DNA of 64,000 nt from a bacterium (GCA_027483535.1 JAIXUN010000001.1:101432-165431), one strand, 5' to 3'; counted from the first letter of the stretch, positions 23,387 to 24,977 are shown. Notes: a model not told the origin generated them from the letters alone. Translations and numbers: made by a program.

Positions 23387-23397
23387 ATCAATCTTCC

Positions 23398-23682
23398 GGG
23401 CGGTTAGCTCAGTGGTAGAGCATCCCGACTTCATCGGGAGTGTCGCCAGATTTCTAGAAAGCCATTCAAGGAATCGGTAAACTTAACTAAGCGGGCGGTT
23501 AGCTCAGTGGTAGAGCATCCCGATTCTATCGGGAGGGTCGCCAGATTCCTAGAAAGCTGTTCAAGGAATCGGTACACTTAACAAAGCGGGCGGTTAGCTC
23601 AGTGGTAGAGCATCCCGACTTCATCGGGAGGGTCGCCAGATTCCTAGAAAGCTATTCAAGGAATCGGTACACTTAACAAAGC
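23398..23682 (+). repeat. Three tandem 95-bp units: tRNA-Val 5' fragment + palindromic pseudo-anticodon arm + promoter-like tail
   Basis: Units start at 23398, 23493, 23588 (tRNA at 23683); first 25 nt identical to the tRNA; unit 1 differs from unit 3 at 5 sites, unit 2 from unit 3 at 4 sites. Confidence 0.97.
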
Positions 23683-23757
23683 GGGCGGTTAGCTCAGTGG
23701 TAGAGCACTTCGTTCACACCGAAGGGGTCGTAGGTTCAAGTCCTATACCGCCCACCA
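23683..23757 (+). tRNA. tRNA-Val (anticodon CAC)
   Basis: GGGCGGT/ACCGCCC acceptor stem, GCTC-AGTGGTA-GAGC D arm, CTTCG-TTCACAC-CGAAG anticodon arm, GTAGG-TTCAAGT-CCTAT T arm, encoded CCA. Confidence 0.97.
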
Positions 23758-23771
23758 TTTTTGAAGGTCCC

Positions 23772-24032
23772 ATGTGGACTCTTTACATCCTCCAAAGCGA
23801 ATCGTCCGGTCGGTTTTACGTCGGCCATACAAACGACATGGTGAGGCGGCTCGAAGAGCATCAATCCGGCCAAACAACCTCAACGCGAAATCGAGGACCC
23901 TGGAAAGTCGTCCACCGCGAGGTGTTCGAATCTAAACAACTCGCTGCGAATAGAGAGCGCCAGATCAAAAGTTGGAAGTCGCGGGTGGCGATTCTAGCTC
24001 TCATCGAGGAGTCCGAAACCGACGATCGGTAG
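23772..24032 (+). CDS. Stand-alone GIY-YIG nuclease (86 aa)
   Basis: MWTLYILQS...FYVGHTND..RRL.EH...T..RGPW.....E.F.....A..RE.QIK.WK: GIY/YIG dyad, conserved Arg, His and Glu. Confidence 0.93.
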   Translation: MWTLYILQSESSGRFYVGHTNDMVRRLEEHQSGQTTSTRNRGPWKVVHREVFESKQLAANRERQIKSWKSRVAILALIEESETDDR

Positions 24033-24087
24033 AGCTTCCCGATTCCATCGGGAGGGTCGTCCCGACCAGTCGGGATACGGCCCACCA
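24028..24087 (+). pseudogene. tRNA 3'-portion mimic with anticodon and T arms replaced by TCCCGA..TCGGGA palindromes
   Basis: GGTAGAGC-T-TCCCGATTCCATCGGGA-GGGTCG-TCCCGACCAGTCGGGA-T-ACGGCCC-ACCA, colinear with tRNA positions 17-75. Confidence 0.85.
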
Positions 24088-24100
24088 CCTCCAGATCCTG

Positions 24101-24289
24101 ATGTGGATCCTCTACATCCTCCATAGTGATTCCTCCGGCCTATTAGGCGAACCCAATCTGCGAATCGATCAGGCTGAAATTCCACCGACTCAACATATAC
24201 GCTCCGTCTTGCAGAGACCAGCCAATACAGAGGTGAATCGCTCGGGTCTGACGACGGGACGAGGAAACCCGACCAACACCCGACCTTAG
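24101..24289 (+). pseudogene. Degenerate second GIY-YIG copy
   Basis: MWILYILHSDSSG versus MWTLYILQSESSG; homology lost after about 13 codons; ATG exactly 329 bp after the first ATG. Confidence 0.8.
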
Positions 24290-24416
24290 ATAAATCAACT
24301 CCAAAACATCGCCTCAGCAAAATTGCCGGTAGCAAGATTGCTTGATCGGATGTATGGTGCCGTTAGCTGCAAAAGATTTGCTCTGTTGCTTCTATTGCTT
24401 TTCTGGGAGGAAAAAC

Positions 24417-24977
24417 ATGAAATCGATTAGAATTTTGGCAATTGCCACCGCACTCGGCGCCCTCGCCACCGCGCAAGCCGCTCAACAAACCTACACCTTT
24501 TCCGGAACCATCACCGGTTCCCTCGGAGGAACAAACTTCTCGGCCAAAGAGTTCAGCATCGTCGGAATCGGCGATAGCTCGACCATCGAAAGTCGGAGCT
24601 TTGGTTGGATCAACACGCTCTCTTCCAACACTTTGACCGTTACCGGATTCGCCCCGGTTTCCATTGCCAACCTTGGCGTGTTCATGAACAACGATGTCGA
24701 CGTAGTCGGTGCCTGGAGAACAGGAACGGAAAACCTCGACGTTTACAATGTCACGATCGGTGAAGATCACGACCTCACCGGTCCCTTTGGGCCAAAGTCT
24801 GGAGCCGCGTTTGCGAACCCGGGATCACCCTTTGCCACCAGCGGTGGCGAGTTCGTCATTGATAGGTTCGATTCTCCTGGTACATACAGCGTAAATGCGG
24901 TTGTTCCTGAACCGGCAACGTTTACGGCTTTGGGAATCGGTGCCCTTATGCTTCGACGACGACGGACTAGCGCTTAG
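24417..24977 (+). CDS. PEP-CTERM protein
   Basis: SD GGGAGG, signal peptide, VPEPATFTALGIGALMLRRRRTSA. Confidence 0.92.
   Translation: MKSIRILAIATALGALATAQAAQQTYTFSGTITGSLGGTNFSAKEFSIVGIGDSSTIESRSFGWINTLSSNTLTVTGFAPVSIANLGVFMNNDVDVVGAWRTGTENLDVYNVTIGEDHDLTGPFGPKSGAAFANPGSPFATSGGEFVIDRFDSPGTYSVNAVVPEPATFTALGIGALMLRRRRTSA

Follow-up and report, generated by a model that had tools for sequence, protein, structure and literature searches.

A GIY-YIG gene between a tRNA gene and a partial tRNA copy

We analyzed a 64,000-nt stretch of a bacterial genome (GCA_027483535.1, JAIXUN010000001.1:101432-165431), referred to here as the window, in which a small gene for a predicted GIY-YIG nuclease directly follows a tRNA-Val(CAC) gene and ends inside a tRNA-like sequence. 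Coordinates are positions in the window, on the + strand; L numbers denote collected homologous loci and X numbers public runs or strains. A sequence-only reading of this locus had interpreted the tRNA-like sequence and the gene fragment behind it as a second, decaying copy of a mobile or amplifying unit. Comparison with other genomes identifies 24028-24087 as the module that regularly forms the 3' end of a small cassette found directly behind tRNA genes, in the order intact tRNA, 5-30-nt spacer, Slx1-like GIY-YIG gene of ~85 amino acids, and 5'-truncated copy of the tRNA. Only the stub of a second gene and the sequence after that stub are dead. The locus contains the following features:

23397..23682, + strand: three tandem 95-bp 5'-type pseudo-tRNA units (Tandem Repeats Finder, TRF; Rfam tRNA 24 bits, under threshold)
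23683..23757, + strand: functional tRNA-Val(CAC) gene (ARAGORN; Rfam RF00005, 71.1 bits; cloverleaf fold)
23772..24032, + strand: intact gene for a predicted 86-residue minimal GIY-YIG nuclease of the Slx1-like/UPF0213 branch (Pfam PF01541, E 4.9e-16)
24028..24087, + strand: pseudo-tRNA 3' module (two-hairpin fold; 53/60 identity to L002 1863-1922)
24028-24035, + strand: D-loop remnant GGTAGAGC of the module
24037-24053, + strand: hairpin 1 of the module, TCCCGATTCCATCGGGA, in place of the anticodon arm
24060-24075, + strand: hairpin 2 of the module, TCCCGACCAGTCGGGA, in place of the T arm
24076-24087, + strand: acceptor 3' strand of the module, with CCA
24088..24100, + strand: spacer of the second unit, 13 nt, unalignable with the 14-nt spacer of the first
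24101..24139, + strand: stub of a second GIY-YIG gene, codons 1-13 only (MWILYILHSDSSG)
24140..24416, no strand assigned: unconstrained sequence from the stub to a PEP-CTERM gene (no profile match, no real homologue)

The 14 nt between the tRNA and the nuclease gene contain a GAAGG motif resembling a Shine-Dalgarno sequence. As had been noticed from the sequence, the stop codon of the intact gene is the TAG at 24030-24032, within GGTAGAGC, the duplicated D-loop motif that opens the following pseudo-tRNA. The two hairpins of this module are separated by the variable loop GGGTCG, and the module as a whole folds as two hairpins (z -3.3). It is not called as a tRNA by ARAGORN or Rfam, and its first part (24028-24059) matches the upstream 95-bp units at 94% identity and the true tRNA at 66%. 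An Rfam scan of the locus matched tRNA alone, and a scan for promoter and terminator consensus sequences found none on the + strand.

Each 95-bp unit consists of a tRNA 5' acceptor strand and D arm, the hairpin TCCCGAnnnnnTCGGGA standing where the anticodon arm belongs, GGGTCG, and a 47-nt tail (TRF: period 95, 3.3 copies, 94% matches, 23397-23707). Local alignments of this tail to the cassette, to the tail of the second unit and to the upstream leader were no better than those of shuffled sequences. The contig carrying the 95-bp unit has a depth of 3.8-4.7x that of the flank in X1 and X2, and the copy number in the population may therefore exceed the 3.3 assembled. Metatranscriptome contigs span the 95-bp units and the junction between unit and tRNA.

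The repeat structure described from the sequence alone was reproduced. GGTAGAGC occurs at 23699 and 24028 and start codons at 23772 and 24101, both pairs offset by 329 nt, and the acceptor ends differ as claimed (ACCGCCC versus ACGGCCC). The 3' acceptor blocks, ATACCGCCCACCA at 23745 and ATACGGCCCACCA at 24075, are spaced by 330 nt, so that two single-base indels (+1/-1) must cancel between the anchors. GGTAGAGC is present in 6 copies in the window versus 0.98 expected, and TCCCGA-N(3-9)-TCGGGA in 6 versus 0.11 expected; for each motif, 5 of the 6 lie at this locus, and shuffling the sequence gives far lower counts for both.

The second gene is a truncated stub

The beginning of the second unit's reading frame resembles that of the first (82% identity between 24101-24138 and 23772-23809), and the two share their first 13 residues, after which homology is lost, as the sequence-only reading had described. 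A family profile built from 45 homologues matched only MWILYILHSDSSG at 24101-24139 (E 0.005), a six-frame scan of 24088-24420 with the family hidden Markov model found nothing past the 13-residue stub, and a tblastn search of the whole window recovered the same 13 residues (E 0.004). Since the profile match is confined to 13 residues, with none up to the next gene at 24417, the second gene was truncated rather than worn down. The gene had been called dead, and this is true of the stub; the six-frame profile search leads us to reject a decayed full-length second gene in favor of a clean truncation after codon 13.

The open reading frame (ORF) at 24101-24289 was likewise rejected as a conserved gene of another family, with 0 matches in Pfam or NCBIfam. 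Its sole match among 1.84 billion representative proteins is a tandem-repeat protein (motif EIPPT..IR) that we judged spurious. The sequence after the stub has no similarity to the syntenic loci L002 and L003. The CCCGA/TCGGG words reported at 24242-24283 are a real, modest local excess, this being one of four sites in the 64 kb with at least 3 per 60 nt, and the half-sites (CCCGAC/TCGGG) were rejected as a folded element (z -0.1). N-terminal stubs of this kind are found at 4 of 82 terminal positions, those of the window, L037, L048 and L073.

The same layout recurs behind many tRNA genes

Homologous loci were collected in two independent sets, the first of 80 loci from species-representative genomes, found with the family alignment, and the second of 84 loci from metagenomes and viral contigs. 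Together, the surveys contain ~175 homologous genes from at least 8 lineages with a name, among them Acidobacteriota, Armatimonadota, Bacteroidota, Verrucomicrobiota, Omnitrophota, NC10, and metagenome-assembled genomes (MAGs) of Smithella/Syntrophales and Deltaproteobacteria. Culturable carriers include Pedobacter xixiisoli and P. polaris, whose copy is linked to a Gly/Leu tRNA. The end of a same-strand tRNA lies no more than 100 nt upstream of the gene, mostly 5-30 nt, in 61 of 85 testable cases in the first set and 51 of 76 in the second. Downstream, a T-loop motif occurs within 80 nt of the stop codon in 63/87 and 57/81 cases, respectively, and a perfect hairpin of at least 5 bp precedes that T loop in nearly all of these (61/63 and 56/57). 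Modules homologous to that of the window follow ~120 related genes.

Partner tRNAs comprise Val-GAC, Val-CAC, Ala-GGC/CGC, Pro, Leu-TAA, Ile, Asn, Asp, Gly and Lys. In each case the partial copy reproduces the local tRNA, with the 3' part of the D arm, the variable loop, the T arm and the acceptor strand, and its last 33 nt are often identical to those of the intact gene. Wherever the alignment bridges the hairpin, the junction between gene and tRNA falls in the D arm. Because similarity to the tRNA begins at tRNA positions 9-22, the gene draws its final codons and its stop from D-arm sequence; in one subfamily the stop lies within the hairpin loop. Unit boundaries at other loci are tied to tRNA sequence. 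Neither of the two findings that would have refuted the sequence-only reading, boundaries unrelated to tRNA sequence or a conserved gene of another family at 24101, was obtained. A similar insertion of ~22 nt (...cagggcaagcg) lies inside the T loop of the downstream partial tRNA in L014 and L083.

The window, L002 and L003 represent the syntenic site of the closest relatives, beside a gene for a DUF5695 protein. L003 has tRNA-Val(CAC) and an intact gene without a tRNA-like tail. L002 has two gene copies, each ending with TAG inside GGTAGAGC; copy 1 is followed by a decayed module broken off within the T arm, and copy 2 by a module in which both arms are substituted, as in the window. The segment with the two cassettes in L002 is bracketed by a 42-nt inverted repeat (40-81 and 1944-1985, 95% complementary), each arm of which contains GTNACCNATGTGTCCGG. 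The same sequence stands before a GIY-YIG gene without a tRNA in an Acidobacteriota MAG (L017 92-108) and is absent from the window; the inverted repeat may represent another type of flank or carrier, or have arisen artificially at the contig start. Genes for PEP-CTERM-tailed secreted proteins (window 24417-24977; L002 429-1160 and 2198-2854), differing in sequence and orientation, fill the interval from cassette to DUF5695 gene in the window and L002; L003 has none there, and this small interval is a variable spot.

In L022 (2919-2998), L038, L044 and L070, the gap from tRNA to gene is 81-82 nt, and the order is an intact tRNA-Ala, ...ATGAAGTAG fused to a pseudo-tRNA, and then the gene. The arrangement resembles a first cassette from whose ORF a deletion left only the start, one codon and the stop.

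Searches with PADLOC and PHROGs gave no meaningful matches to defense or phage families, and IMG/VR contained only 4 relatives. No description of a cassette made of a tRNA, a minimal GIY-YIG gene and a partial tRNA was found in the full-text literature that was searched, although absence there is no proof. The tRNA-linked GIY-YIG cassette is widespread and apparently undescribed.

A conserved hairpin replaces the anticodon arm

In every group, a GC-rich hairpin with a loop of 3-17 nt replaces the anticodon arm of the partial copy. Its sequence differs with the partner tRNA and host: GGCCGAC..GTCGGCC with Val-GAC, [CT]CCCGG..CCGGG[GA] with Ala, and TCCCG[AGC]..[TCG]CGGGA in Armatimonadota, Bacteroidota, Smithella and a Lys-tRNA locus. 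A hairpin of this last type replaces instead the T arm of an upstream pseudo-tRNA-Pro in L006 (Verrucomicrobiota) and L072 (Omnitrophota), and the T arm is also hairpin-substituted in the window and L002. Full-length hybrid "tRNAs" with a hairpin lie upstream of the gene in L039, L075, L022, L028 and L061. Two of these hybrids (L039 2415-2487, L075 2414-2489), in which the hairpin stands for the anticodon arm, are called "tRNA-???" or tRNA-Arg(ACG) by ARAGORN. In L068, a 38-nt insertion in the hairpin loop (2768-2805, ggagcgtgtcatgctgagcggagcgaagcatctcgttt) resembles a small palindromic repeat element.

An alignment of 49 hairpin sequences has 98.6% of its cells paired. Three of the 6 pairs show compensatory changes (GC/UA/CG), and the CCG/CGG core is invariant; kinship among the 49 sequences limits the number of covariation events that can be counted as independent. 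One-sided (G-U) states were not found in this alignment. Since the hairpin recurs across groups, tRNAs and phyla with covariation, it is a trait of the cassette family and not a product of random decay. The interpretation of the tRNA-like sequence as part of a decaying second unit therefore has to be abandoned: such modules trail single-copy genes in well over 100 loci, and their hairpins are conserved with compensatory changes.

Tandem arrays, duplicates and boundaries

Intact tandem cassettes were found in L021 (317 bp), L029 (323 bp), L030 (320 bp), L054 (306 bp) and L064 (329 bp), the two units of each array being 84-100% identical. The proposal that a unit of tRNA 3' part and nuclease gene multiplies in tandem is borne out by these five loci; the later decay that had been proposed with it does not extend to the tRNA-like piece. 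Upstream 5'-type arrays without the nuclease gene occur in the window, L004 (7 units), L052 and L066. The hairpin-bearing pseudo-tRNA units of L004 (1752-2428, 96 bp x 7), L052 (2228-2439, 87 bp x 2.4) and L066 (2191-2472, 74 bp x 3.4) break off at the T arm or just inside it. Downstream 3'-type arrays are present in L061 (3081-3840), L039 (2883-3092) and L049 (2285-2493), with units of 85-87 bp in up to 8.8 copies (L061). Each such unit contains the T arm, acceptor strand, CCA, a spacer of ~33 nt, the 3' part of the D stem and the hairpin, and no nuclease gene; the array of L061 sits between tRNA-Ala and tRNA-Met.

Two observations speak for mobility of the unit. One genome has two copies, 97% identical and separated by 11 kb, of a 313-bp segment that reaches from the T arm to the 5' arm of the hairpin and lies among metabolic genes, and L002 has its two copies. 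In front of nine "orphan" genes is a tRNA fragment whose first nucleotide is exactly anticodon-loop position 32; such fragments may represent either a transposed unit's left end or a tRNA half displaced by island integration. No integrase was found in the available flanks of L047 and L068, and on this ground we rejected an integrase origin for these two orphan copies, while it may apply to other orphans. The break or crossover site that the sequence-only reading placed in the D-loop/anticodon region is, on sequence evidence, a candidate. Boundaries recur at three places, namely the D arm, anticodon-loop position 32 and the junction of variable loop and T stem, and several breakpoints fall within hairpin loops. 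Truncations and contig breaks are frequent at these loci.

The gene and module are constrained

The gene evolves slowly at the protein level among the window, L002 and L003, with nonsynonymous differences per site (pN) of 0.08-0.14, synonymous differences per site (pS) of 0.56-0.76 and a ratio of nonsynonymous to synonymous rates (dN/dS) of 0.03-0.2. By this measure of coding sequence the predicted nuclease is under strong purifying selection. The modules of the window and L002 are identical at 53 of 60 positions (88%) despite saturated synonymous sites in the gene, so the module is conserved far above neutral expectation and is not decaying.

Strain variation gives the same picture on a shorter time scale. 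Strain X4 has 0 differences from the window in 23623-24035, which covers the tRNA and the gene, and 1 at 24036. It has 12 differences in 24105-24233, 11 of them after the stub, and a G>A change at 24105 turns stub codon 2 from TGG into TAG. Strain X5 follows the trend of X4. Together with the identity of the modules, these differences show that the gene and module are constrained and that the stub and its tail are not. A related strain (X6/X8) is 97% identical to the window through the gene and departs at 24047, in the loop of hairpin 1, into unrelated sequence (ACTGGTAAATCATTAGG...).

The predicted nuclease

PF01541 covers residues 1-71 of the protein, which has a single domain in its 86 residues, and it has the GIY and YIG motifs and the Arg, His and Glu of the catalytic core. 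Among the 45 homologues, the catalytic residues Y5, Y16, R26, H30 and E62, as well as G18, either never vary or are conserved in at least 90%. The closest structures are 1zg2 (E 4.6e-14) and 1ywl (E 2.6e-09), with SLX1 at E 3.8e-05. The protein is a member of the GIY-YIG superfamily, in its minimal Slx1-like/UPF0213 branch, and a predicted nuclease. One feature of homing endonucleases is present, as the gene adjoins a conserved gene, the tRNA, within 100 nt at most of the loci of both sets; a DNA-recognition domain, another such feature, is lacking from what is the catalytic core alone. Several copies occur within genomes (the 97%-identical pair and the two of L002), and there are structural variants at the level of strains.

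How the cassette may multiply

The intact tRNA and its truncated copy form direct repeats around the gene. Direct repeats, tandem arrays, truncations and the pattern of constraint are all observed, and together they make it probable, in our judgment, that these loci hold a tRNA-linked cassette whose unit is duplicated by recombination between the repeats, stimulated by the nuclease. Unequal homologous recombination would duplicate the unit of tRNA 3' part, spacer and gene head to tail, and the reciprocal event would delete it. The second unit of the window would have arisen by such a duplication; a later deletion would then have removed everything past codon 13, leaving a remainder that drifts.

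The part played by the nuclease is less certain. It may break DNA at or close to tRNA-gene sequence that is prone to form hairpins or cruciforms and so stimulate recombination between the repeats. Its Slx1-like kinship (UPF0213 and the structure-specific nuclease domain of SLX1) and the breakpoints within hairpin loops suggest, more weakly, that the nuclease provokes these events. Breaks may also let the cassette copy itself into cassette-free tRNA alleles or, rarely, into other sites. The substituted copy would be kept by selection, probably as a homology arm immune to cleavage, as a structured 3' end of the nuclease mRNA, or as both.

A number of observations weigh against this explanation. 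The protein belongs to a clade without known cleavage activity or target, and it is difficult to see how 86 residues without a DNA-recognition domain could home to a specific sequence. At an occupied locus, any target internal to the tRNA would persist in the intact tRNA, and L003 has an intact gene without a pseudo-tRNA, so the module is not indispensable. The second unit of the window has a different spacer from the first and a stub that is 18% divergent, and separate insertion of a diverged copy is possible. The protein tree follows tRNA type within phylum, a pattern that fits vertical descent too, and the three closest relatives carry the gene at a syntenic site. The gene and the flanking DUF5695 gene have diverged at a matching pace (85-86% for the gene versus 87%, and 79% versus 83%); this co-divergence indicates long vertical residence, not recent invasion.

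The missing recognition domain, the target retained in the intact tRNA, the co-divergence and the tree by tRNA type make a domesticated host gene a serious rival, even if we think it unlikely. Here, the gene would serve repair or RNA/tRNA metabolism and be co-transcribed with the tRNA, the partial copy would be an element of its mRNA, for processing or for stabilizing the 3' end, and tandems and stubs would be neutral by-products of the flanking repeats. Co-divergence with the flanking gene, strong purifying selection and conservation of the module are what such a gene would show, and the hairpin keeps its stem across loop lengths of 3-17 nt, a pattern suited to a folded strand and not to a duplex binding site. 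One metatranscriptome contig extends from the last of the upstream units across the tRNA into the start of the gene; it is compatible with co-transcription of tRNA and gene, although it may also stem from DNA carry-over. A fusion of GIY-YIG with TrmH, the enzyme of tRNA Gm18 in the D loop, has also been reported in this branch (PMC1564403). Domestication leaves unexplained, however, why at least 10 tRNA species each have a locally matching partial copy, why there are multiple copies per genome or locus (L002, L047/L068 and the tandem arrays), and why arrays of gene-less units, frequent truncations and contig breaks occur. It is also at odds with L003, which does without the module, and with the stem, which has no G-U intermediates. 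A domesticated gene and a mobile cassette are not mutually exclusive.

The second unit of the window could also be the remnant of an older cassette that was inserted separately and displaced downstream by the present one, which appears improbable to us. The unalignable spacers would be accounted for, as would the stub that is only 82% identical to the first gene, the greater likeness of the pseudo-tRNA to the upstream units than to the resident tRNA (94% versus 66%) and the two diverged copies in L002 (synonymous divergence, dS, 0.41). Yet all 5 of the intact tandem arrays have units 84-100% identical, as local duplication predicts, and the pseudo-tRNA with both arms substituted predates the split from L002, where no stub follows it.

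A more far-reaching possibility is that the nuclease works together with the hairpin-substituted tRNA copy, which would then be no scar, giving a structure- or RNA-directed GIY-YIG system on tRNA genes. A true anticodon arm next to the native 3' flank exists only in a cassette-free allele, and the substituted arm could therefore immunize the occupied one. An RNA overlapping the 3' end of the gene has a layout like that of the omega RNA and reRNA of IscB and TnpB, and by analogy a structured RNA that covers the end of the gene and reaches the element boundary could supply target recognition. We consider such a system very unlikely.

That the partial tRNA copy is an attL/attR-type scar of integrase insertion into a tRNA gene has hardly any probability left: partial tRNA duplication is the classical mark of integrative elements (PMC9897764), and the nine orphan loci begin at anticodon-loop position 32, a known crossover sublocation, but the repeats of the window enclose only 270 nt with the nuclease gene as sole gene and no integrase, begin in the D loop instead of the anticodon or T loop, have arms replaced by a conserved hairpin and recur in identical layout at more than 100 loci, which already contradicts this origin for the window. 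Chance resemblance or misassembly can practically be dismissed, for although the 95-bp array, in a repetitive region, interrupts short-read contigs, the second unit is spanned by independent contigs of four public runs (X1 23681-24500, X2 23700-24500, X4 23590-24269, X5 23840-24351), so that it is no assembly artefact, and the two similar blocks are collinear, the motif counts exceed shuffled expectation as given above and L002 has a homologous module.

Comparison with known systems

By itself the finding at this single locus is modest, and it opens onto a widespread association. Structures of bacterial Slx1-like/UPF0213 proteins have been available for about twenty years while their role has stayed unassigned, and the linkage to tRNA genes offers a lead to function, with tRNA-gene or hairpin DNA, or a tRNA-like RNA, as hypothetical substrates. 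The protein described here resembles UPF0213 members (BH0048, 1zg2; EF2693, 1ywl) in domain, size and absence of auxiliary domains. In classification of the GIY-YIG superfamily, the minimal Slx1-like branch is treated as vertically inherited, repair-type proteins (PMC1564403). Linkage to tRNA genes, partial tRNA copies, hairpins and tandem arrays are absent from the UPF0213 literature, whereas they are the context that defines the clade studied here (YILQSE...IKSWKS).

A review of prokaryotic partial tRNA genes gives only integration and CRISPR as their sources. Alongside integrases and CRISPR spacers, the cassette would be a third origin of partial and aberrant tRNA genes in genome annotation. 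It differs from the partial tRNA genes of integrative elements (PMC9897764) in its insert of ~270 nt, the lack of a recombinase, the start of the copy in the D arm and the systematic substitution of the anticodon arm by a hairpin. Its by-products can enter lists of tRNA genes as wrong isotypes, and it would explain recurrent contig breaks at such tRNA loci.

The closest parallel to cassette multiplication through repeat recombination is SegB of phages T4 and T6, a free-standing GIY-YIG homing endonuclease encoded in a tRNA gene cluster (PMC2330249, PMC13096335). In T6, where segB lies beside tRNA genes, SegB drives tandem amplification of the unit of tRNA and segB through homology that the tRNA shares at its 5' end with segB at its 3' end (PMC13096335). 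The cassette shares with SegB a GIY-YIG gene directly beside a tRNA, head-to-tail units joined where the tRNA meets the 3' end of the gene, and copies that can be truncated. The window holds one complete unit of the SegB type and a truncated one, and complete pairs are found at L021, L029, L030, L054 and L064. SegB is a phage protein that includes a DNA-binding part, whereas the cassette encodes, on bacterial chromosomes, a bare 86-residue, Slx1-like catalytic domain. In the SegB system, a functional and useful tRNA is amplified, whereas the repeated parts in the cassette lack the 5' acceptor strand and the anticodon arm, and bring no gain in tRNA dose.

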